A stretch of 64,000 nucleotides of DNA, taken from Candidatus Caldarchaeum subterraneum. Its GTDB lineage: Archaea; Thermoproteota; Nitrososphaeria_A; Caldarchaeales; Caldarchaeaceae. Shown here piece after piece: positions 52,200 to 64,000 of the stretch (position 1 is the stretch's first letter; the number at the start of each line of letters is the position of its first letter). The notes below the pieces were generated by a model. It did not search any database. It was given only the letters and a program-made list of their open reading frames with translations, and had not been told where the DNA came from. The position numbers were made by a program, and so were the translations under genes. The DNA lies in NCBI GenBank assembly GCA_937934305.1, contig CALHAG010000001.1, forward strand, positions 12,422-76,421. Reading direction: 5' to 3'.

Positions 52200-52649
52200 T
52201 TAAAGCTCGTTTAGAAAGATAAGCTGCGTCTCGAAAGGTTGTTTGTTGATTTCTTCTTCAAGCTCTTTTTCCTTTTTCGCGAACATGACTTTAAACCCAT
52301 TTTTTTCTCCAGCGGCTATGGTTATACAATCGACCAGTGATAAAGCTCGTCGGCATTTTAACTGTGCCGCCCTCCGCAAGTAGGGCGTTATGTCCAGCAT
52401 GTGTATGTATCCGGAATTTAGCAGTTTGTTAACTATTTCTTCGGCCTTTTCCCATCCAAGTTTTCTGCAGATGAGGTATCTGAGTTCTGTTATGTTAATC
52501 TCCGTGGTGAAGGAGTTGATCATTTCTTGCCTAATAAGTTCGGCCAGCCGTTTCCCGGCCTCTGTCCCCGCCAGCAGCTCAACAAGGACGCCTGTATCAA
52601 GTATTGTATCGCCGAGCTCTTTTCTCCTCATCCAGCCGTCTCTCCTCAT
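52200..52649 (-). CDS. vapC: PIN-domain toxin VapC
   Basis: 'ILDTGVLVELL' N-terminal Asp and a later 'SLVDCITIA' Asp. About 140 aa. Overlaps the upstream small gene. Confidence 0.65.
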   Translation of the reverse strand: MRRDGWMRRKELGDTILDTGVLVELLAGTEAGKRLAELIRQEMINSFTTEINITELRYLICRKLGWEKAEEIVNKLLNSGYIHMLDITPYLRRAAQLKCRRALSLVDCITIAAGEKNGFKVMFAKKEKELEEEINKQPFETQLIFLNEL

Positions 52650-52845
52650 AAAGCTCTTCCGTCGATATCATGGGGACGGAGCCTATTATCGAATCCAGCA
52701 CCTCAGGCTTCTTCTCCTGTCTCAGAAGCAAATGCCGTATAGCTTCGTCTAGGTCTACACGGCGGCCATATCGTTTTTGAAGTGTAGCAGCGAAGCGGAC
52801 AAGCATCTCCTTTGTTTGTTTTGCTACCTTTATAGTTGAAGACAC
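52597..52845 (-). CDS. vapB: Putative antitoxin VapB
   Basis: 82-aa basic protein directly upstream of, and overlapping, the PIN gene. Confidence 0.5.
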   Translation of the reverse strand: MSSTIKVAKQTKEMLVRFAATLQKRYGRRVDLDEAIRHLLLRQEKKPEVLDSIIGSVPMISTEELYEERRLDEEKRARRYNT

Positions 52846-54566: not shown

Positions 54567-55435
54567 GGGAGATACTGGGTGAGATAGGTGTGTTGACCAT
54601 GCGCGAGATACGTAAATGGCTGCGGTCGCCGTTTCTGATGTTTTTCACGCTTGTCCAGCCGGTTATCTGGATGGGGCTGTTCGGCAAAGCATTCAACATC
54701 ACAGGCTTCATCCGCATACCTGATGAGATGCTCCAAAACCTGCCGCCATACGTTACGTCTCAGCTGGCGGAGATATTCAACAACATGATGACAAGGCTCT
54801 TCGGGACAGCGGACATCGACTACTTCAGCTACATCGCGGTCGGTATGCTCAGCATCACTATTCTTTTTTCCTCGATGTCGAGCGGCATGGGCATCGCATG
54901 GGATAGACGACTAGGTTTTCTCAACAAGCTTCTCGCAGCACCCATTTGGCGCGGCTCCATCATCGTCTCCAAAGTGTTGTCAGGCGTGTTACGGGCGGTC
55001 ATGCAGGCTGCGCTGCTTCTTCTCGTGGCCCTCGCATTCGGCGCACGGTTCCATGTATTGTTTCCGCTGGGGCCTCTTGCGGCTTTTGGGGCGCTTTTCT
55101 TCCTCGCGCTAGGGCTTACCTCGCTATTCATCGCGCTCGGGCTTCGGCTGAAGAGCTGGGAGTCGCAGGCAGCTGTCATGAACCTGCTCAACCTCCCGCT
55201 CATGTTCGCGAGCAACGCACTCTACCCCATCGCTCTCATGCCATCGTGGCTCCAAGCCGTCGCACAAGCCAACCCCATCAGCTACGCCGTAGACGCCGTC
55301 CGACAGTCGCTCATCTACGGTGCGGCCGCAGACCCTTCAAAGCTCCTCCTAGACCTAGGAGCGGTGGCCGTCTTCGCAATATCCTTCACCGCAATAGGTG
55401 TGTTGATAGCTGACAAAGGCCTCAGAGGAGGCTAG
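54563..55435 (+). CDS. ABC-2-family transporter permease
   Basis: 290 aa, 6 TM. Overlaps the ATPase stop by 4 nt. Confidence 0.8.
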   Translation: MREILGEIGVLTMREIRKWLRSPFLMFFTLVQPVIWMGLFGKAFNITGFIRIPDEMLQNLPPYVTSQLAEIFNNMMTRLFGTADIDYFSYIAVGMLSITILFSSMSSGMGIAWDRRLGFLNKLLAAPIWRGSIIVSKVLSGVLRAVMQAALLLLVALAFGARFHVLFPLGPLAAFGALFFLALGLTSLFIALGLRLKSWESQAAVMNLLNLPLMFASNALYPIALMPSWLQAVAQANPISYAVDAVRQSLIYGAAADPSKLLLDLGAVAVFAISFTAIGVLIADKGLRGG

Positions 55436-55612
55436 GCTTAAAGCCATCGTCAAATGACTTCCATCAACATAGATAAATGGTGTAGTTTGGCAGGCCTACA
55501 GGGTATAACGATGGCCAAGTTCAAATTATCCCATACAAATGGTATTCATTCGGCTCTGTGTCAGATTAAAACTCTTAAATAAGTCTCCGCTGAAGATATC
55601 GGTGAAGGTTAA

Positions 55613-56923
55613 GTGTCCAAGGAGGAGGCAAGACTTCGACTGAAGTCGATCACAATACAAAACTGGAAGGGCTTTAAGGACTGCAAATTGGAGCTATACG
55701 ACGGCCTAAACGTTTTGGTTGGCCCCAACTCGTCCGGTAAGACAAGCCTCCTTGAAGCGTTCAAGTTCCTCAAGAAAGCACTTGTCGAGATGGAGTCGCC
55801 ATACCTGTCGCATTTAGAGTGGTGGACCTACAGAAACATAGTCTACGGAAACGACGAAACAAAACCGATAAGATTCGAGCTTGAATTCGAGCTACCGGAG
55901 GAATATACTGCAACATACGAGGTTGTTTTTACAGGAGTTGGGGGCAACATCAAAATAGCAAAAGAGAAGATGGAGATAAAGAAGGTTGTTTCTTTCACAA
56001 AGGAAGGTGAAACGCTAACTATCGAGTATGACCGGGATTTTTTCGAAAAGAATATAAACATAGTAAATCGTAGGGCATACAAAATTGAACAAAAGAGACG
56101 AATTAAAGTAGATTTTTCATACTGGAGTTTAGTTTTTATATCCGGAATAATACCATTGATACCAATTAAAAAATATGTAGAGAATGAGGTCGAATTGCTT
56201 TCCTTCTTTTTACACATTTTCCGTCCGGTGCGTGAGGTTTTTTTATTGTCCCCAGAATTAAAAACACAAAAAAAGCCTTTAGTGTCCTATGCATTGTATA
56301 GTACAAAAGAATTTTTCGAAAAAATTTTATTCATTAGACATCCAGATTTGGTTGATATCAGGCAGCCTAAGCCTCATCAAAGCGGCTATACCTTATCTGA
56401 ACGTGGTGAAAACTTGGCCGCGATACTGCATAGATGGTTTTTACAGGGCGGCGGCCGGTTACCGGATAGAATCGAAAGAGCTCTACAGAACCTTTTCCCC
56501 TACTTCACTCTGAGACCAGACATAACTGTGGATGGAAGAGTGTTTCTATCGATACAGGATGGTATGTATGGTGCTAGACTTGACCCGCCATCCATCCCCG
56601 ATGGATTCTACAAACTTCTGCATGTTTTGACGGCTGTCGAGAGCGAGCCATCAATACTTTTGATTGATGAGTTGGAGAACTCTCTTCACAGTGAAATACT
56701 CGAATACATCGTAGAAGAGTTAAAAAACGCGAACATCACCTCCATAGTTGCAACTCACTCACCGATAGTGGTGGATGTTGCGGGGCTTGAGTGTCTGCAA
56801 CTGCTTGAGAGAACACCTGAAGGGAATAAAGTGAGACGGGTTGAGAACTTGGAGGAGATACAGAGGTGGATGAGGGAGAAGAAGCTGACGCCCAGCGAGA
56901 TGTGGCTTTACCAGCTTCAGTGA
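55613..56923 (+). CDS. OLD/AbiL-type ABC-like ATPase (AAA_15/AAA_21-like)
   Basis: 'IQNWKGFKD...LNVLVGPNSSGKTSLLEA' Walker A. 'SILLIDELENSLH' Walker B (D-E). 'VATHSP' H-loop. AT-rich gene in an AT-rich islet. Confidence 0.75.
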   Translation: MSKEEARLRLKSITIQNWKGFKDCKLELYDGLNVLVGPNSSGKTSLLEAFKFLKKALVEMESPYLSHLEWWTYRNIVYGNDETKPIRFELEFELPEEYTATYEVVFTGVGGNIKIAKEKMEIKKVVSFTKEGETLTIEYDRDFFEKNINIVNRRAYKIEQKRRIKVDFSYWSLVFISGIIPLIPIKKYVENEVELLSFFLHIFRPVREVFLLSPELKTQKKPLVSYALYSTKEFFEKILFIRHPDLVDIRQPKPHQSGYTLSERGENLAAILHRWFLQGGGRLPDRIERALQNLFPYFTLRPDITVDGRVFLSIQDGMYGARLDPPSIPDGFYKLLHVLTAVESEPSILLIDELENSLHSEILEYIVEELKNANITSIVATHSPIVVDVAGLECLQLLERTPEGNKVRRVENLEEIQRWMREKKLTPSEMWLYQLQ

Positions 56924-57423
56924 AACCGATTTACATCATCTGTGAAGACCAATACGGGAAGTTATTTTTTCAAAACCTGTGTAGGAGGATAAGTAACCGT
57001 ATCAATGTCAAGGTGAAGTCAGCTAAAGGCAGAGGCCGAATACCCTATGAGGCACCCCGCATAATCAAGGCAGCCGCACAGGATTACCGTAAGTTTATAG
57101 TTGTTTTTGACTCGGATGGAGAAAACAACGCAGAACAGGAAATTCAGCAGAAACTTACGAGCGAACTTTCTCAATACAACTTACAGATAGAATTAATTGT
57201 AGTTGCATGCAATCCCTGCATCGAAGAATGGATTGTAGCAAACATGTGCCTCAACGATGCCAAACCCCTCGAATTTTTGAAACGGAACCATAAATATGAA
57301 AAAAGGCACTTGCCCGGCTACGCCGATAGACTCGACATTGATATTCTGTCGAGTAAATCACAGAGTTTCAGGAAATTCTTTGATGCCTTGCGTCGCTTTT
57401 CAGAAAGTCGTTGGGATGTTTGA
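56920..57423 (+). CDS. Small TOPRIM-like partner protein (DUF4276/OLD-Toprim-like), GTG start overlapping the ATPase stop (GTGA)
   Basis: 'KPIYIICEDQYGK' (Glu) and 'FIVVFDSDGEN' (DxD) TOPRIM-like motifs, plus a later acidic 'CNPCIEEWIV'. The ORF from 56866 overlaps the ATPase by 58 nt. The GTG at 56920 gives classic 4-nt coupling. Confidence 0.55.
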   Translation: MKPIYIICEDQYGKLFFQNLCRRISNRINVKVKSAKGRGRIPYEAPRIIKAAAQDYRKFIVVFDSDGENNAEQEIQQKLTSELSQYNLQIELIVVACNPCIEEWIVANMCLNDAKPLEFLKRNHKYEKRHLPGYADRLDIDILSSKSQSFRKFFDALRRFSESRWDV

Positions 57424-57498
57424 ATGCGACAGTGAGTATATTCAAGCGATATGTTAACGGTGTGCTGTTAGCTGACAGAGGCCTTAGAAGGGGCTAGC

Positions 57499-58389
57499 TC
57501 ATGACCAGGCGTCGGATAGCTTCCGGTAGTCTTCTTCGGCGAGCCTCCATCCTGCTCCGCCGGCGTTTTCCTCGAGATGCTCCCGGCGGATGGCTTTGGG
57601 TATGGTTATGACGTGTGGTTTCCAGATGACCCAGTTCAACGCCACCTGTGTAGGTGTTTTGCCGTATTTTTTGGCTAATGTTGTGAGGGCCCTGCCTCTC
57701 TCCGTGTTTTTCGCGGCTTCGGCCGCTATTCTGCCTTTGCCCAGCGGCGTGTAGGCGACCACGGTGATTTTGTTTTTCTCGCAGAAGGGTATGACCTCCC
57801 GCTCGTTCTCCCTGTTCTCCAAACTATAGATAATCTGGTTGGAGACGATTTCCTCGCTTCGGCACGCCTCCATCGCCTCCTGTAAAAGCGGGACGTCAAA
57901 GTTGCTGACGCCTATGTAGCGGACCATTCCATCCTTCACAAGCTTCTCCAGAGCATGCATCGTCTCTGCGACAGGGATGCGTGGATTGGGCCAGTGAATC
58001 ATGTAGAGGTCGACATATTTGAGCTGAAGCCTCTCAAGGCTTCTGCGGCAGGCTTTGATGACGTCGTCGTAGCGGAGGTTGGAGGGCCAGACCTTTGTGG
58101 CGACAAACACCTCTTCACGCGGAATTGTTTTCAACGCTTTCCCGACAAGCTCCTCGCTGTGACCTCCGCCGTATATCTCGGCGGTGTCGATGTGGTTCAT
58201 GCCAAGCTCTACTGCATATCTGATGGCGTCTATGGCTTGGTCGTCTTGGCTGTAGTCAGGGGTTTCACGGCCTCCGATGCCCCATGTCCCAAGACCTATC
58301 GCCGCAACCCATTCACCCGATTTACCCAGCTGCTTCTTCTCCAAACCCTGTATGCAAATGTTTGGAACGTTTAAAGGCTTGCGCATCAA
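57499..58389 (-). CDS. Aldo/keto reductase
   Basis: 'LGKSGEWVAAIGLGTWGIGG' N-terminus and AKR barrel motifs ('IDTAEIYGGGHSEELVG'). Confidence 0.85.
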   Translation of the reverse strand: MMRKPLNVPNICIQGLEKKQLGKSGEWVAAIGLGTWGIGGRETPDYSQDDQAIDAIRYAVELGMNHIDTAEIYGGGHSEELVGKALKTIPREEVFVATKVWPSNLRYDDVIKACRRSLERLQLKYVDLYMIHWPNPRIPVAETMHALEKLVKDGMVRYIGVSNFDVPLLQEAMEACRSEEIVSNQIIYSLENRENEREVIPFCEKNKITVVAYTPLGKGRIAAEAAKNTERGRALTTLAKKYGKTPTQVALNWVIWKPHVITIPKAIRREHLEENAGGAGWRLAEEDYRKLSDAWS

Positions 58390-58459: not shown

Positions 58460-58675
58460 ATGTTTGCAAAGCTTTCGCGAGTTGTTATAGAGGGGTTGTC
58501 CTCATCGATAAGCCTCGACACCCCTCTCATACTCATCTCAGCGGTCTCGATAGGCATCGTCACATTCCTAGTCTTCACACTCGTGTACAGAATCCCCGAA
58601 GTGGTCGCTGTCCTCTTCTCCATCCTCCTCGTCGTCCTCTACCTACTGTTTCTCCGCAGAGAGCTGCGACGCTGA
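58460..58675 (+). CDS. Small 2-TM membrane protein (start uncertain)
   Basis: The ORF from 58277 overlaps the AKR start. An internal Met at about 58460 gives a 71-aa hydrophobic protein with a 'LFLRRELRR' tail. Confidence 0.25.
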   Translation: MFAKLSRVVIEGLSSSISLDTPLILISAVSIGIVTFLVFTLVYRIPEVVAVLFSILLVVLYLLFLRRELRR

Positions 58676-59962
58676 GCCCCATCTCCAGAAAAGGCTGGCC
58701 TCTATTTTCTGGGCCTGAGATGTTTGAGCGGCGTAGCATGCGAGGGCTAGGGCCATGACGTAGTCGTCATGTTCTCCGGCGGGGGCTTCATATTTTAATG
58801 AGTGGCCTGTGTTTATTTCCTGGTAGAGGCGTAGCTGGTTTATCAGGGTTTTTTCGTCGGCGGGGATGATGAGTTTTTTGTTGAGGATGTTGTTGCGGAG
58901 GTTGTTGACAAGGATTTGCTTTGTTGATGACGTGATTGTTATGGGCTGGAGATGTGGTATGGTTTTTGCGAGTGTTTCGGCGAGGGGCGCGCCCATGCCT
59001 GTGCTGTCTACGGCGACGACAGCTGGTTGAAGAACCATGTTGGCCCTATTGATTGCTTCGAGCTGTGCCGCGAAAGGCTTCTGCCTCAGCTCCTCGACAT
59101 AACACACTCGCAGCCTCTCTCCATCCTCGACGACGGCTATTATCACTGTCGAGTCTCGGAACCTCCCGAAATCCACGCCAACATACACACGTCCCCCGAC
59201 AACACGCGCGGGCACAAAATCCTCCACACATTCCAGAATCTTCTCATAGGAGATGAAGGCATTAACTTCGTCGAGAAACTCGCACATCATCTCCTGCCTC
59301 CACTCGAGAGGTGACATGGTTTTACGCAGCTCCTCGAGGTCGTGCATGGTTATGTGGGGTGAATCGCCGAGTTTGACGAGATGTTTGGACCATGTGTTCT
59401 CTGTTATCCAGGCTTCGTGGAACCATCCTCTCTTTCCTTTCGGTGTTGAGACGAGTGTGACGCGCCCGTTGCGTGCGACGGTTGTGAACATGATAGCTGT
59501 TTTCAGGTTTGTGTCGTCTCTGAAGAACGCGGCCTCATCGACGTAAACCGCGTCTGCCCTGTATCCGCGGAGAGACTCAGGGTTATTGGGGAGCGAGATT
59601 ATGCGGCTGCCGTTGCCCAGCTCCACTGTTCTCGCACCGATTTTAGCCATCAGCCTGTATATGCTGTGTCCATGTTTGAGCCGTGTGTTCTCGAGACGTG
59701 AGAAGATTGTTCTTACGTGGCGGAAAATTTCGAGGCTTTGCCTAAGCGAGTAGCTTATCAGGAGAATTGTTGAAGCTGGATGTGTCAAAGCCTCGGCACA
59801 GGCTTCTGCCGCTATCGTGAATGTTGCGCCCGCGCCGCGGTGTTTGAGGATAATTCTGAAGCGGCTGGGGTCGTCGATGAAGTTTTTCTGCCATGGATGA
59901 AGCTTCACATCAAGTCCTGCGGCATGGAGTAGAAGCTGCACCACATCACTTCGTTTCATCAC
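58643..59962 (-). CDS. Phage/virus terminase large subunit
   Basis: N-terminal ATPase (deviant Walker A 'KHRGAGATFT', Walker B 'AVYVDEAAFF'). C-terminal RNase-H-like nuclease motifs ('VAVDSTGMGAP', 'GEHDDYVMALA'). Confidence 0.75.
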   Translation of the reverse strand: MMKRSDVVQLLLHAAGLDVKLHPWQKNFIDDPSRFRIILKHRGAGATFTIAAEACAEALTHPASTILLISYSLRQSLEIFRHVRTIFSRLENTRLKHGHSIYRLMAKIGARTVELGNGSRIISLPNNPESLRGYRADAVYVDEAAFFRDDTNLKTAIMFTTVARNGRVTLVSTPKGKRGWFHEAWITENTWSKHLVKLGDSPHITMHDLEELRKTMSPLEWRQEMMCEFLDEVNAFISYEKILECVEDFVPARVVGGRVYVGVDFGRFRDSTVIIAVVEDGERLRVCYVEELRQKPFAAQLEAINRANMVLQPAVVAVDSTGMGAPLAETLAKTIPHLQPITITSSTKQILVNNLRNNILNKKLIIPADEKTLINQLRLYQEINTGHSLKYEAPAGEHDDYVMALALACYAAQTSQAQKIEASLFWRWGSASQLSAEKQ

Positions 59963-60158
59963 CTGTCCCCAGCGCCTCGTTGAGCATCTCGTCTATGATG
60001 CGTTTGAGACGGTCTGCGTCACGCTTGGTCCGTGCACGGCCTTCGACGACAAGGTCTTCTCCGACGCTTCGCACAACACAGCTAATACCCATGACTGTCT
60101 CCGACTGTTTATCCGCTTCTACGGCTTTTTTACCCCCGGTTCTTAGAAGCCAACTCAT
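59946..60158 (-). CDS. Hypothetical small provirus protein
   Basis: 70-aa ORF sandwiched between, and overlapping, virus-like genes. Confidence 0.25.
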   Translation of the reverse strand: MSWLLRTGGKKAVEADKQSETVMGISCVVRSVGEDLVVEGRARTKRDADRLKRIIDEMLNEALGTGDETK

Positions 60159-60684
60159 CTACACCACCTCCGCCAAGCACAATCCTCTCCAGCGTCATCA
60201 GCTTAACAGCCAGACACACGACTAAAGCTTTGAAATCAAGTCCACCATCAGAGGCCCTTAGCTCGGGAGCAATCTCCTCAGCGAGAAAACCTATTTCCCA
60301 CCGTCCCGCGCGCCGATATTTCTTCGGCTTCGGTAGCTGCAGGGCTGCGAGTTTCTGTTCATCTATTTCTGTTATGTCTGTTTTATCGGATGATGTGGAG
60401 GGTATGGTTATGTTGGCTGTGATTATTTCGGCTGCGGGGTTTTCTGCTGAGCCTATTGTGAGTGTGTAGGGCTGCTGGGCCTCTATCCGTGTCGGCGTTA
60501 TCTTCACGTTTGCGACAAGGGCTCCGTCCACGGTTTTCTGCACAACAGACTCAAGCAGCTCGATTCTCATCCTCAGCCTGCTATTTTCTTCGCGGAGACG
60601 CTGGTTCTCTGACTCGAGAGTCTTGAGCTTCTCCGCCACCTTGGCTGGCAACCCCGACTCTGGGTCGAGAAACATTATCTTCAT
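60130..60684 (-). CDS. Provirus coiled-coil protein (possible scaffolding/assembly protein)
   Basis: N-terminal heptad-rich 'KLKTLESENQRLREENSRLRMRIELLESV'. 184 aa. Confidence 0.35.
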   Translation of the reverse strand: MKIMFLDPESGLPAKVAEKLKTLESENQRLREENSRLRMRIELLESVVQKTVDGALVANVKITPTRIEAQQPYTLTIGSAENPAAEIITANITIPSTSSDKTDITEIDEQKLAALQLPKPKKYRRAGRWEIGFLAEEIAPELRASDGGLDFKALVVCLAVKLMTLERIVLGGGGVDELASKNRG

Positions 60685-60687
60685 GTT

Positions 60688-61368
60688 CTACACCGCGATG
60701 AGGTATAGCTCAGCCCCGCTTGTTGCCGATGGCTTGATTATTGATATTTTGTTGACGGCGACCGGGGTGTCGAACGTGTCTAACAAAGCGTCTGTTGTTG
60801 ATGGATTATAAAGGGTATAGAATGCATTATCGTCAAATATGAACGAGGTCTGAGGGTCGAGCTTGTAACCCGTTACAAATAGTTGTCCTATGTTAAGCTC
60901 ATCAGCCGTTACAGAGGTTTTATTGTTATTTAGTAGATATACCGTCAAAGAAGGATTTGCGACATAACTTGTATTTGAAGTCGCGCGAGTATGCCATAGT
61001 TCCCATGTTACTACCCCGTTTGTCGGTGTGTTACGGTCAACTGTTGCGCTCTGTGTAACATAAGTAGTCGAAGTCGTGCGATGTGTCGTGCCAGCGACTC
61101 CAAGGATTTTCATATAAGCATCACTATAACCACTGCTACCGCTACTTACTCTATGTTGAAATGAATAAGATATTCTTACGGTGTCGTAGAAATTGGGAAG
61201 CGTGTTGACGAAATTGGCGATATTTATGCTGCCTGATGTGGCTAGAACCCATGATGATGAGTTTGTGCTCCATTCTCCAGAATAGGAGGCTGTGTTATTC
61301 CAAACCGGTATGTTCCAGTAGAGGGTAAATCTGCGGCCTACGTCGCCTATGCGGAGTGTAACGCTCAC
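60688..61368 (-). CDS. Provirus structural protein, Ser/Thr/Asn-rich, beta-rich (fibre/receptor-binding candidate)
   Basis: 226 aa. High S/T/N/Y content typical of fibre or adhesin-type virion proteins. Overlaps the upstream gene by 4 nt. Confidence 0.35.
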   Translation of the reverse strand: MSVTLRIGDVGRRFTLYWNIPVWNNTASYSGEWSTNSSSWVLATSGSINIANFVNTLPNFYDTVRISYSFQHRVSSGSSGYSDAYMKILGVAGTTHRTTSTTYVTQSATVDRNTPTNGVVTWELWHTRATSNTSYVANPSLTVYLLNNNKTSVTADELNIGQLFVTGYKLDPQTSFIFDDNAFYTLYNPSTTDALLDTFDTPVAVNKISIIKPSATSGAELYLIAV

Positions 61369-63230
61369 AGCTGAGTCACCTCGCTCCAGAATAGCAACGC
61401 CCGCTTAAACTTAGGCGATGTAGATGATGCGTTCGGCCTGCTCATGTTCACCTCAACCACAAGCTTCTCATATGTTATCGCCGTGAATACATGGTCAAAG
61501 TCGATGTAATATGTGCCGGCGGGGAGAATAACCTGTAACTGGTTGATGTTGCTCCAGCTCGGTGTCCCCGTGGCCACGAAGTCGGATAACTTCTTGACGT
61601 ATTTTTGGAATTTTCCAGAGGAAACGGTTATCTGAGCAGAGTAATAGTTGGATGTGTTTGTCAAGGCTTTTACCGTGATGGTGGCGTTCGCGACTGGATA
61701 GACGTAGATGTTGAAGTAGCGGCATTCTGAAAGGTTCCATGCGAGCGAGCCGGTGGCGGGGTAGGTGAGCGTCATGGTGGTTGTCCCCGTGGCCTTGAGA
61801 GAGTAGCGAGAGATGACGGAGATGTTTGAGTCGCTGAGCGTGCCGCCCGATATAGACCACTTGGATGCATCTTTCTCAGCTAAGGTTTTCCGCGTCGGGA
61901 TGTAGGGGAAATTGTAAGGCGAGGATATGTTGTTTTTTATCACCGAGTCGTCGCCCAGCTTCAGATTAACCGTAACGCTTCCACCGCCGACATCTCTGTC
62001 AAACTTCAGCGTCTTAGGCTCCACGTTCTCCGAAGAAGGCATAAACTCAAGCGTAAACCAACCCGATGTAAACCCGCTAGCCAACACAATCTCCCCCACA
62101 TCATTATAGGTTATGTTCTGCCCCGACGTATAGGGTATCGGTGGAACATACATCGTCATGAATAATTGTGGAATCAACTGGGTGGTGAACCGTTTGGCAA
62201 TCGACTGCGACAAAGCAATAGCGTTTCCCACAGCCTCTGCGACGGACATTTGTTTGCCAAACCTTGCAGCAGGGTCTCCGCCGAACTTTTCATCCAGAAC
62301 ATCCTCAAGCAGCTCCAGCCGTCCCCCCAGCACAACTTCGTAAAGCAGCGTATCTGTCTCGTATCTGATTTCGAGTATGTAGAGGTCTTCGTTGTCTATT
62401 CCGAGGGTTGGTAGGTTGACTGTGACGGTGTCGCCGAGGTCGAGGCCCAGGTTGGAGAAAATCTGCTGATGCATCTGGAGTCTTAGTGAGCGGCCGTATT
62501 CGCTTGCCATGTCGAGACGTGTCTGGGCCCTTCGCATGGCCTCGGAGCTGTCGGTTAGGAACGGGTCATGGACAACGAGAGGCAAATCGCCTAACCCAGT
62601 GTAAACGTCTGCAAGCACTTCACCACCTGCGCCAACATAAACAACCCTGTTACGCAGCCTCCACCTATCCTCGCTATACTCTGCAGACAGTATTTTGCCC
62701 ATGTCTAGTGAGGCGGATGAGGAGGATGTTGTCTTTGGTTTGTAGACCAGCTTCTTCCCGGGCCTCATGCGTAGCCAGTGGTTGGTGGCTTTTGCGATGT
62801 CCTGCATCACTTTCAAAGCCTCGACATTTTCTAATGACCAATTGCTGGTGAGAGCAGGTCCTTCACTTACCTCGGTCACGTCGACACCCTGTTCAAGCGA
62901 TGCAAGGTCTCTGATGATTGCTCCCGCTGTAGTCCCTGTTGGATATTCGCGGAAAACCACGTGACGTTCGTAGAGTATCAAGTCGCTGTGAGCTGTGAAG
63001 CTGCAGCGGGGTATGTCGCCTCTCTGATGTCTTCTGCTCACTTCGTAAACCACTCCCTCAAAAAGAATGGTTGAACCGCGGCGAAGCCTCACCCTCTCAC
63101 CCACATTCACGTAGTCGAGCATCTCTGCTTCGAGAGCCTCAAGGCTACGGCTCTCAAGTCTCCATCGCAGCGACGTCACCACACCCGAGAAATCAACCCA
63201 CGAATCCCCTCTGTAAACCTCGAGAATCAT
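61365..63230 (-). CDS. Provirus large structural protein (tail/baseplate candidate)
   Basis: 621 aa, immediately downstream of the tape-measure-like gene (4-nt overlap). Composition typical of a distal tail or baseplate protein. Confidence 0.4.
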   Translation of the reverse strand: MILEVYRGDSWVDFSGVVTSLRWRLESRSLEALEAEMLDYVNVGERVRLRRGSTILFEGVVYEVSRRHQRGDIPRCSFTAHSDLILYERHVVFREYPTGTTAGAIIRDLASLEQGVDVTEVSEGPALTSNWSLENVEALKVMQDIAKATNHWLRMRPGKKLVYKPKTTSSSSASLDMGKILSAEYSEDRWRLRNRVVYVGAGGEVLADVYTGLGDLPLVVHDPFLTDSSEAMRRAQTRLDMASEYGRSLRLQMHQQIFSNLGLDLGDTVTVNLPTLGIDNEDLYILEIRYETDTLLYEVVLGGRLELLEDVLDEKFGGDPAARFGKQMSVAEAVGNAIALSQSIAKRFTTQLIPQLFMTMYVPPIPYTSGQNITYNDVGEIVLASGFTSGWFTLEFMPSSENVEPKTLKFDRDVGGGSVTVNLKLGDDSVIKNNISSPYNFPYIPTRKTLAEKDASKWSISGGTLSDSNISVISRYSLKATGTTTMTLTYPATGSLAWNLSECRYFNIYVYPVANATITVKALTNTSNYYSAQITVSSGKFQKYVKKLSDFVATGTPSWSNINQLQVILPAGTYYIDFDHVFTAITYEKLVVEVNMSRPNASSTSPKFKRALLFWSEVTQL

Positions 63231-64000
63231 AGCGCAGCCCTCAGCCTCCTCACAATCTCGCGGCTAAGAACCTCGGCAGCGTCGGCGCCTCTTTCGCCGG
63301 AGAAGTTTACGCTCATGTTGACGTTCACGACTGTGGTTGCGCCGCCTCTGCGAAACCACTCAGCCACAGCGCGGGGCAGCACCATCTCACCCTCATGCAG
63401 AATCGCGGGCCCAGTCCTCGGCACATACCATGCACCACGCTGATATTCTTCAAAAAAGCGGCCGCCTGTCTCATGCACTATTCCAGAGCCGTTCGTGCCG
63501 CCTGTGGTGCTATGTATTGTGACATGTTCCTCGACGATTGTGTATCTGACCACTTGGCCGTTGAGTGTGTTGAGGTAGTTGATGAGTGACTGGACGCTGG
63601 AGACGTTGCCTTCGACGGCTTGACGCGTGGTTTCGAGTGCCTTGACAAGCATTTCGTGAAGAGAGCCGGCTACGTTGCCTGCGTTAACTCCAAGGGTCCC
63701 CAGCAACCCGATGAACTCCGCTTGTGTGACTGTTCCATCTGCGAGGGCCTGTGCTAGGCCCTGCATCATGGCTGTGAGCATGTCGCCTGCCTCGGTGGCC
63801 CCCATCATGTAGAGCTGGAGAGCTTGTTGCTGGAGGGAGAGGAGCTGGCTGGTGTAGTTGACTACCGACTGCGCCGCAGCGAGATACTCCATGCTCTTGG
63901 CCTGCTCCTCTGTCAAAGGCTCAGCGACACCAAGCGCTTCATGCACCTGTTTCAACACGTTGTAGAAATCCAGGCCAGCCGCCAAACCCTTCGAAGCCAA
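63227..64000 (-). CDS. C-terminal part of a tape-measure-like protein (gene continues beyond the window end)
   Basis: The ORF is open to the window edge. Ala/Gly/Leu/Gln-rich helical repeats 'LLSLQQQALQLYMMGATEAGDMLTAMMQGLAQALADG' typical of TMPs. Confidence 0.45.
   Translation of the reverse strand: MASKGLAAGLDFYNVLKQVHEALGVAEPLTEEQAKSMEYLAAAQSVVNYTSQLLSLQQQALQLYMMGATEAGDMLTAMMQGLAQALADGTVTQAEFIGLLGTLGVNAGNVAGSLHEMLVKALETTRQAVEGNVSSVQSLINYLNTLNGQVVRYTIVEEHVTIHSTTGGTNGSGIVHETGGRFFEEYQRGAWYVPRTGPAILHEGEMVLPRAVAEWFRRGGATTVVNVNMSVNFSGERGADAAEVLSREIVRRLRAAL

Follow-up and report, generated by a model that had tools for sequence, protein, structure and literature searches.

A two-gene cassette in the chromosome of a hot-spring archaeon (Caldarchaeales/Nitrososphaerota) combines an ABC-type ATPase with a small, predicted Toprim nuclease and is probably a mobile antiviral module, acquired by recombination, of the AbiL/HEC-01/MADS3-4 branch of OLD-related AAA_15/21 systems. 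The domain identities, the intact motifs, the conserved pairing of the genes, the accessory and horizontally moved status of the cassette and the mosaic variable insert of its ATPase are established here. This ABC-ATPase plus Toprim kind of system is already known, and the record of its arrival and variation is unusually clear at the present locus: what is new is the empty site in the closest relative, the imported tract with a duplicated junction, and the hypervariable insert with its shuffled alleles.

Results

Both open reading frames of the original prediction are found at the positions given for them in the window, by which we mean the whole 64,000-nucleotide stretch of DNA that was analysed, and their coordinates and those of the other features are listed in Table 1. 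The claim that the pair sits in an AT-rich islet was borne out, with a GC content of 42.3% in the cassette against 51.8% in the window, and a GC3 of 0.46-0.48 against 0.61-0.70 in the neighbouring genes. The GTGA overlap of the gene 1 stop and the gene 2 start (56920-56923) is present as described and is identical in the orthologue of the archaeon HR01. An upstream GTG would extend gene 2, but the 167-aa form is favoured because distant homologues start at the short position. Upstream of gene 1, the motif GATTAAAACTCTTAAAT is identical between the window and HR01, in an intergenic region that is otherwise 38-59% identical, and it is a putative archaeal BRE/TATA promoter. A 124-aa antisense ORF inside gene 1 (55843-56217, minus strand) was dropped for lack of support.

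Table 1. Coordinates of the cassette, its motifs and the surrounding features within the window
Feature	Position	Strand	Remarks
Imported tract, 2.24 kb, low GC	55290-57529		permease last ~145 nt, cassette and reductase last ~30 nt
Left junction copy	55397-55462		functional permease 3' end and stop codon, then decayed copy of the reductase 3' end
Putative promoter motif GATTAAAACTCTTAAAT, 17 nt	55563-55579	+	34-50 nt upstream of the gene 1 start codon
Gene 1, 436-aa ABC-type (Rad50/SMC/OLD-like) ATPase, AAA_15/AAA_21 group	55613-56923	+	Pfam, PADLOC, AF2, Foldseek, hhalign
Walker A GPNSSGKTS, aa 37-45	55721-55747	+	G37, N39, G42, K43 invariant in 40 homologues
Hypervariable insert of gene 1, aa ~91-257	55883-56383	+	lowest conservation at aa 151-227
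Signature-like PDGFYKLL	56597-56620	+	G331 invariant in 40 homologues
Walker B LLIDELE, aa 349-355	56657-56677	+	D352, E353 invariant in 40 homologues
D-loop/His LENSLH	56672-56689	+	H359 invariant in 40 homologues
H-loop ATHSP, aa 380-384	56750-56764	+	H382, S383 invariant in 40 homologues
Alternative gene 2 start, upstream GTG	56866	+	would give 185 aa
Gene 2, 167-aa RloB/DUF4276-type Toprim-like nuclease (predicted)	56920-57423	+	GTG start
E9-D10, candidate Toprim glutamate, just after strand 1	56944-56949	+	>=90% conserved in 120 family members
D64-S-D66, DxD motif, end of strand 3	57109-57117	+	D64 invariant in 120 members
E102, candidate second-metal ligand, helix start after strand 4	57223-57225	+	invariant in 120 members
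K128 of Y-x-K-x-x-L-P, C-terminal helical bundle	57301-57303	+	>=90% conserved in 120 members
Right junction copy	57459-57524		non-coding relic of the permease 3' end (57459-57497), then functional reductase 3' end
Aldo/keto-reductase gene, host	57499-58389	-	between the pair and the terminase gene
Terminase gene	58643-59962	-	part of the virus-like cluster

The identification of gene 1 as an ABC-like ATPase held up in the Pfam search, where it matched AAA_21 with an E-value of 1.5e-22 (81.5 bits, cut-off 27) and AAA_15 with 1.3e-17 (65 bits, cut-off 32.1). All the motifs originally quoted for it were located, the nucleotide-binding motifs are intact as judged from the sequence, and the predicted product belongs to the AAA_15/AAA_21 ATPases. 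An AF2 model (pLDDT 87.8) has the ABC fold, and its top Foldseek matches were PtuA, which was the best, Thermus scotoductus (Ts) OLD, GajA, Rad50 and SMC; no AriA structure was among the best 50. P2 Old, which like Ts OLD is a class 1 OLD protein, is homologous to gene 1 over the C-terminal ATPase half (hhalign, 98.1%, E 1e-13).

The Toprim nature proposed for gene 2 is supported. Its two quoted motifs are in place, IYIICEDQ at aa 4-11 (56929-56952) and VVFDSDGE at aa 61-68 (57100-57123), and Pfam RloB is matched with 34.6 bits against a cut-off of 31.5, so that gene 2 is a small RloB/DUF4276-type Toprim-like protein; the Pfam matches of both genes (AAA_21 and RloB) are far above chance. Of 120 members of the wider subfamily, DUF4276 is matched by 32 and RloB by 11, which leaves about two thirds with neither. 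In fold, gene 2 comes closest to the Toprim and helical region of Bp OLD, a class 2 OLD protein, although a Foldseek search of the model against the PDB gave weak, generic alpha/beta matches with Ts OLD in fifth place (E 2.7e-3). Sequence profiles did not reach a solved Toprim protein: family profiles of 5 and 120 sequences had no significant match among all PDB chains, and in an hhalign comparison of the 120-sequence profile with P2 Old the Toprim region was not aligned (probability 0.2%). Because the profile searches found nothing, the assignment is based on the Pfam RloB match, the fold of the model and the pattern of motifs. In that pattern, which is common to Bp OLD, E9-D10 was matched to E400/E404 of Bp OLD by its place in the secondary structure, E102 is positionally like E508, and K128 is possibly the counterpart of K562. 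Of the two Asp residues of the DxD motif, the second varies: D66 is Asp in gene 2 but D, H or E across the family.

The HMM searches proposed with the original prediction gave matches to Pfam AAA_21/AAA_15 and to PADLOC defence models. Gene 1 matched PDC-M25A (3e-30), HEC-01A (3e-29) and AriA (2e-24 and 9e-18), and gene 2 matched HEC-01 models (5e-7 to 3e-5) and MAD4; AbiLi (3.5e-23) and AbiLii (4.2e-6) were matched by genes 1 and 2 respectively, as judged by E-value. By these PADLOC models the cassette appears to group with HEC-01, PDC-M25, AbiL and MADS3-4; in the literature, AbiL and MADS3-4 are counted, like OLD, Gabija and PARIS, among the systems that combine an ABC ATPase with a TOPRIM domain. 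The earlier reading as an AbiL/PARIS-type split ATPase and Toprim pair therefore stands for the AbiL/HEC-01 branch by PADLOC models, while PARIS is excluded.

HEC-01 (Hma-embedded candidate 01; PADLOC-DB v2) is the top-scoring PADLOC family among those that match both proteins, and it likewise consists of two genes, for an ABC ATPase and a small TOPRIM protein. It shares its metal site with Bp OLD, did not protect E. coli from the phages with which it was challenged and is still only a candidate (bioRxiv 10.1101/2024.01.29.577857). The genes from which HEC-01 was defined lie within bacterial Hma systems, whereas the cassette described here is free-standing in an archaeal chromosome. AbiL (AbiLi/AbiLii), which originates from a Lactococcus lactis plasmid, protects Lactococcus and acts 'after transcription' (PMC13064643), is a distant relation seen through profiles only; HEC-01 and PDC-M25A score higher for gene 1, and the present host is a thermophilic archaeon. 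MAD3 (3e-18) for gene 1 and MAD4 (3e-8) for gene 2 are the best NCBIfam matches, and PADLOC mad3 and mad4 match as well, but the NCBIfam scores are far under the equivalog cut-offs (66 against 420 bits and 34 against 160 bits), and no other MADS gene, such as a methyltransferase, was found in the neighbourhood.

PARIS (AriA/AriB) is the best mechanistic template for the cassette, since in it too an AAA_15/21 ABC ATPase, whose variable insertion is implicated in trigger sensing, is paired with a separate Toprim effector. Even so, the cassette is not PARIS: gene 2 has no DUF4435 match in Pfam at E<=1 and no AriB model among its PADLOC matches, and with 167 aa it is half the size of AriB (~300 aa). 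Gene 1 does match the AriA models, with better scores for other families. It is not Gabija, as no GajB (UvrD-type helicase) is nearby, and in OLD and GajA the ATPase and Toprim domains are fused in one polypeptide where here the genes are split. Nor is it Septu or a retron-associated PtuAB pair, gene 2 being RloB/Toprim-like and not HNH (PtuB); the match of gene 1 to PtuA is 3e-20 in PADLOC and 60.7 bits in NCBIfam against a cut-off of 500.

The pair was also considered as a housekeeping DNA-repair unit analogous to bacterial RecF (ABC ATPase) and RecR (Toprim), a domain pairing that is formally identical; weak N-terminal matches of gene 1 to RecF, Rad50 and SMC models would suit this reading. 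The RecF match, at 44.7 bits, is below the cut-off of 172 and is limited to the P-loop (aa 10-53), and the composition of the cassette is foreign. A housekeeping role, which the original prediction had named as an outcome that would speak against it, is hardly credible, and the cassette is not RecF/RecR: the presence/absence pattern refutes it, the pair being absent from the closest relative and from most related genomes, and the cassette was acquired horizontally.

The closest relative (L008) has an empty site, as have L009, L014 and L016, and all four keep the adjacency of reductase and terminase without the pair. Informative sites are L008-like up to a switch between 55279 and 55303, HR01-like from there on, and L008-like again after a second switch between 57526 and 57532; sliding identity agrees with these breakpoints, and both are sharp, the right one lying inside the reductase gene. 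Over its final 150 nt the permease gene shares 87% identity with HR01 and 50% with L008, while its upstream part is 89% identical to L008, and the dS of the cassette is 0.12-0.60 against 1.5-1.8 in the flanking genes. The cassette was thus acquired horizontally, by recombination from another lineage.

The insertion is bounded by a duplicated permease-reductase junction, seen as a 39-nt direct repeat of 85% identity at a spacing of 2062, with an alignment that extends beyond it. Of the 66 positions of the right copy, 64 agree with the left junction of HR01, and HR01 and L091 have a longer duplication at the same place. The duplication was also considered as a general signature of the cassette family, and this was rejected; because L086, L088 and L089 have none, it is specific to the present insertion. 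The junction was likewise rejected as a general defence hotspot, as ordinary housekeeping genes lie downstream of the permease in more distant Caldarchaeales genomes; among the Caldarchaeales compared, the only other insertions after the permease are a small hydrophobic ORF in L010 and a DUF3800-like ORF in L011.

The pair lies between a PadR/ABC transporter (ABC-2 permease) and an aldo/keto reductase. No defence island was seen around the pair at the locus. A PIN/VapC-like pair lies 3 kb from the cassette. The statement that the cassette is directly beside a provirus is correct in that a virus-like cluster is nearby, with a terminase large subunit, a tail protein and a tape-measure-like gene lying 1.2 kb to the right, but the host aldo/keto-reductase gene intervenes. 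That proximity, and the frequent presence of PARIS-type systems on prophages and satellites (PMC11464382), would suit an accessory pair ('moron') that the integrated virus-like element uses against competing viruses. This origin is very improbable, as the reductase that separates the two is a conserved host gene, the imported tract stops within it, and no relatives were found on IMG/VR viral contigs, scanned with an 18-sequence alignment, or in GenBank phages by tblastn of gene 1; the four empty sites largely refute it. The cluster also occurs in relatives without the pair, and the pair is independent of it. A tblastn search of 72,556 PLSDB plasmids with gene 2 gave no match either, and because viral contigs, phages and plasmids yielded no relatives, the mobile-element link usual for such systems is not seen here.

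In all eight other places examined (8/8) the ATPase and small-protein genes overlap or abut, in a different neighbourhood each time; the two genes are adjacent, co-oriented and kept as a pair. The other copies examined stand singly between housekeeping genes, outside defence islands, in a patchy distribution. Since cluster look-ups found one member in a WOR-3 bacterium, the family is not exclusively archaeal.

A comparison of five gene 1 alleles showed that aa 1-90 and 258-436 average 85-100% identity (92-100% in the core once the first 30 aa and aa 258-287 are excluded), against 23-43% at aa 151-227. The insert has a dS of 1.62 and a dN of 0.39, with 33.8% GC (nt 55883-56332), while the core halves have a dS of 0.27-0.60 and a dN/dS of 0.06-0.10, which indicates strong purifying selection. 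Its alleles are shuffled relative to the host background, and at least three are carried on otherwise near-identical ATPases. Because its position corresponds to AriA insertion IS1 (residues 122-180), which is implicated in trigger recognition (PMC11464382), we propose that the insert may be a trigger-sensing surface.

This variation is relevant to another reading of the cassette, as a selfish addiction module of the toxin-antitoxin type, with the nuclease as toxin and the ATPase as antitoxin, that would persist and spread by recombination without net antiviral benefit to the host. The overlapping two-gene operon, its patchy occurrence singly and outside defence islands, and its horizontal transfer would all fit such a module, and PARIS itself formally acts as a type II toxin-antitoxin pair (PMC13064643). 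However, a hypervariable insert between nearly invariant core halves resembles a surface that tracks changing external ligands, for which simple addiction has no need, and the strong purifying selection on those halves also argues against this reading, which we regard as quite improbable.

Discussion

Taken by analogy with related systems, the cassette would work as an antiviral module, and for complex formation, trigger, substrate and antiviral outcome we infer the following course. The ATPase and the small nuclease would be made together by coupled translation across the GTGA overlap and would form a complex that keeps the nuclease inactive. Once the hypervariable insert has recognised a virus-derived cue, the binding or hydrolysis of ATP at the intact sites (Walker A/B, signature, H-loop) would free or activate the nuclease, which may then cut nucleic acid through a two-metal Toprim site formed by E9/D10, D64xD66 and E102, with K128. 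Either host tRNA, the target in PARIS, or DNA, that of OLD and Gabija, could be the substrate, and its cutting would stop virus multiplication.

The same components could instead act in an OLD/Gabija-like manner, with ATPase and nuclease staying together for ATP-regulated cutting of invading or host DNA, instead of setting free a tRNA-cutting effector as PARIS does. Among solved structures, the fold of gene 2 is closest to the DNA-cleaving nuclease domain of a class 2 OLD protein, whose two-metal residue set it has, candidate catalytic lysine included; gene 1 is structurally nearer to Ts OLD and GajA than to AriA, and gene 2 is without the DUF4435 region that AriB uses for dimerisation. On the other hand, our data do not discriminate between substrates, Toprim nucleases also cut RNA, as RNase M5 and AriB do, and a separate, small nuclease of 167 aa is the arrangement of sequester-and-release systems. 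We consider a permanently joined DNA-cutting complex unlikely.

The antiviral module preferred here may further exemplify a largely archaeal, thermophile-adapted clade of minimal split-OLD immunity, in which swappable insert alleles that circulate among Caldarchaeales populations would set specificity and the cassette would spread as an integrase-free circle. Such a circle, with a copy of the target gene-end junction, would integrate by homologous recombination. As a joint reading this is possible and is put forward tentatively, with some doubt.

Few abortive-infection-type systems are reported from thermophiles and Thermoproteota, and no ATPase-Toprim system has been tested in an archaeon in the literature. 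The locus is a compact, well-delimited candidate with natural controls, namely an isogenic-like empty site and at least three insert alleles, with which it can be tested directly whether virus specificity lies in the insert and which substrate gene 2 has at high temperature. The cassette extends the host range of its kind and leaves the understanding of ATPase-Toprim systems unchanged, and it shows clearly how cassettes of this type move and diversify. If the split-OLD clade is real, it would give Archaea their first tractable abortive-infection-type system with an ATPase and a Toprim protein, and its exchange of sensor domains would be a natural experiment.

Results

An ABC-type ATPase with a small Toprim-like partner

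The original prediction described two overlapping genes in an AT-rich islet, and both open reading frames, with every motif quoted for them, were found in place; the cassette has a GC content of 42.3% against 51.8% for the window, and a GC3 of 0.46-0.48 against 0.61-0.70 in its neighbours. In Pfam, gene 1 scores well over the cut-offs for both AAA_21 (1.5e-22) and AAA_15 (1.3e-17); its matches to RecF, Rad50 and SMC models cover the P-loop only (RecF, 44.7 bits vs a cut-off of 172), and a housekeeping repair pair is essentially excluded. Walker A G37, N39, G42 and K43, the signature glycine G331, Walker B D352 and E353, H359, and the H-loop residues H382 and S383 are invariant in a 40-sequence alignment. 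The AlphaFold2 model (pLDDT 87.8, pTM 0.89) is an ABC-type head whose top solved-structure matches are PtuA (Septu, retron Ec78), Thermus scotoductus OLD and GajA, with Rad50 and SMC ranking after the defence ATPases, and the gene 1 profile aligns with the signature, Walker B and H-loop half of phage P2 Old (hhalign probability 98.1%, E 1e-13). The 17-nt motif upstream is a plausible BRE/TATA promoter candidate.

Coordinates of features in the window and at related loci
Feature	Position	Strand	Remarks
Gene 1, ATPase	55613-56923	+	436 aa
Gene 2, RloB/DUF4276-type	GTG 56866 (185 aa) or GTG 56920 (167 aa), to 57423	+	two possible starts
17-nt motif GATTAAAACTCTTAAAT	34-50 nt upstream of gene 1		identical in HR01; spacer otherwise diverged
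Direct repeat flanking cassette	55397-55435 and 57459-57497		39 nt, 85% identity, spacing 2062
PIN-domain (VapC-like) gene	52200-52649	-	overlaps 82-aa upstream ORF 52597-52845
Head-tail virus-like cluster	58643-64000	-	terminase large subunit, tail protein, tape-measure-like gene
Same cluster, other loci	L007 11765-20272; L008 8017-12595; L016 8054-12845

The later gene 2 start shares the sequence GTGA with the gene 1 stop, as it does in the orthologue from archaeon HR01, a cassette-bearing relative, and the 167-aa form is preferred because distant homologues start at the short position. The protein passes Pfam RloB (34.6-35.1 bits vs a gathering score of 31.5), the family to which AbiLii belongs. 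In its predicted model, built on an 18-sequence alignment (pLDDT 88.1, pTM 0.85), helices alternate with four parallel strands, and a helical bundle forms the C-terminus. The family is small: an exhaustive HMMER search over 1.84 billion representatives recovered 350 at E<=1e-3. One family member is from a WOR-3 bacterium. All 120 members in an alignment have D64 and E102, and conservation of E9, D10, F16, Y126, K128 and L131 is 90% or higher. In Bp OLD, strand 1 is followed by E400/E404 and strand 3 by D455xD457, with E508 in the helix that succeeds strand 4 and K562 in the helical domain; together these make up its two-metal set (PMC6755086). Judged by secondary-structure order and position, the conserved residues of gene 2 would be their counterparts. 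Current Pfam models cover this subfamily poorly: RloB matches 11 of the 120 members, DUF4276 matches 32, and about two thirds match neither.

Acquisition of the cassette by recombination

Orthologous Caldarchaeales loci were obtained by a permease-protein scan of 185,579 species genomes. At locus L008, from the closest relative of the window genome (flanking proteins 86-94% identical), the ABC-2 permease gene directly adjoins the aldo/keto-reductase gene, as it does in L009, L014 and L016; only HR01 and L091 among the retrieved loci carry the pair, and these share just 54-69% identity with the window in their flanks. Nucleotide identity to L008 is ~90% throughout but collapses over the cassette tract, where identity to HR01 climbs to 81-99%. 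Between 55279 and 55303 the informative sites change from L008-like to HR01-like, and they revert between 57526 and 57532. Between the window and HR01, dS is 1.5-1.8 in flanking genes vs 0.60 for ATPase aa 1-90, 0.27 for aa 241-436 and 0.12 for gene 2. The breakpoints and the low cassette dS relative to its flanks show that recombination brought in a ~2.24-kb tract well after the divergence of the two host lineages. Loss of the cassette from L008, the opposite scenario, is disfavoured because the last 150 nt of the window permease gene are 87% identical to HR01, when every other inter-lineage pair is 43-62% identical. The cassette encodes no integrase. Just upstream of the main left breakpoint, at 55195-55261, informative sites alternate between L008-like and HR01-like, which hints at a mosaic conversion tract, not one clean crossover.

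The repeat that flanks the cassette reaches ~66 nt if weaker similarity is counted. On the left it consists of the permease gene's 3' end, including the stop codon; on the right it is a non-coding relic abutting the stop of the convergent reductase gene. Duplication of the same junction is longer in HR01 and L091 (~125-150 nt), and no flanking repeats were found at the other cassette family members examined. Insertions at or beside this permease 3' end were also seen at two other loci: in one, ~550 nt containing a hydrophobic ORF of 164 aa separate the permease from the reductase gene (L010 6864-7358), and in the other a DUF3800-like ORF (MFIYIDEAGDLGF...) comes immediately after the permease gene (L011 6929-7573).

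Conserved pairing and a hypervariable insert

The ATPase and small-protein arrangement recurs at every other place examined: in HR01, in two genomes between radA and pyruvate kinase, on a Heimdallarchaeota contig, on a contig where it adjoins aspartyl-tRNA synthetase, and in three further close alleles. IMG/VR viral contigs, GenBank phages and PLSDB plasmids yielded no relatives. On the Heimdallarchaeota contig (WJIK01000109.1; L088 2190-2242), about four tandem copies of the 14-nt unit CTCGTAGAAAATAG span the stop codon of the RloB-like gene.

Comparison of five alleles (window, L091, HR01, L092 and L093) showed 85-100% mean identity over ATPase aa 1-90 and 258-436, or 92-100% for the core once the first 30 residues and aa 258-287 are excluded, against 23-67% over aa 121-257, where aa 151-227 are the lowest at 23-43%. 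The alleles represent at least three insert types, and aa 91-240 of the window and HR01 differ with a dS of 1.62 and a dN of 0.39. L091 and HR01 have a common host background (permease 92-97% nucleotide identity) and different inserts (50-77%), whereas the window and L091 have the same insert type (68-88%) in host backgrounds just 60-70% alike. The insert thus moves between backgrounds as an allele. Its position matches that of the insertions setting AriA apart from Rad50, and residues 122-180 of AriA (IS1) have been implicated in trigger recognition (PMC11464382); by analogy, the insert would be the sensing surface.

Genomic surroundings

The pair had been placed directly beside a provirus. 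The virus-like genes to its right are real (terminase large subunit, 1e-49; tail protein; tape-measure-like protein), but a conserved host reductase gene stands between, and the reductase-terminase adjacency is also found in genomes lacking the pair. On both grounds the pair is independent of the element, and a role as provirus accessory is essentially excluded. The terminase gene ends the virus-like module, behind the tail genes. At least five Caldarchaeales genomes, with housekeeping flanks that share only 55-94% identity, have the cluster adjoining the reductase gene; this points either to an ancient element, passed on vertically and possibly domesticated, or to recurrent integration at a single site. 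Elsewhere in the window, the PIN-domain gene and the 82-aa ORF (52200-52845) are likely a toxin-antitoxin pair because they overlap; they are shared with L008 (95% aa identity) and absent from the HR01 locus.

Discussion

PADLOC models ranked PDC-M25A (3e-30), HEC-01A (3e-29), AriA (2e-24), AbiLi (3.5e-23) and PtuA (3e-20) for gene 1, and HEC-01 (5e-7), MAD4 (3e-6) and AbiLii (4e-6) for gene 2; the NCBIfam MAD3 and MAD4 models fall far under cut-offs on the pair. In the literature, AbiL and MADS3-4 join OLD, Gabija and PARIS in a group of systems that combine an ABC ATPase with TOPRIM (PMC11464382), AbiLii was independently predicted to be OLD nuclease-like (PMC13064643), and HEC-01 has been reported to pair an ABC ATPase with TOPRIM, to have an OLD-like metal site and to give no protection in E. 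coli (bioRxiv 10.1101/2024.01.29.577857). These rankings and the literature grouping assign the pair to the AbiL/HEC-01 kind. It is not PARIS, since DUF4435 is absent and gene 2 has no AriB match among PADLOC models. Gabija is ruled out by the split genes and the lack of a helicase, Septu by the lack of an HNH domain, and MADS was also ruled out.

Our results support the overall interpretation of the original prediction, and the module is probably, though by no means certainly, antiviral. A PARIS-like mechanism, in which the nuclease is sequestered and then released to cleave RNA, is a tentative proposal, only slightly favoured over an OLD/Gabija-like DNA-cutting complex, and a purely selfish toxin-antitoxin is quite improbable. 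The kind of system is already known; this one sits in an under-studied host, its acquisition history is unusually legible, and it offers a natural series of putative sensor alleles.
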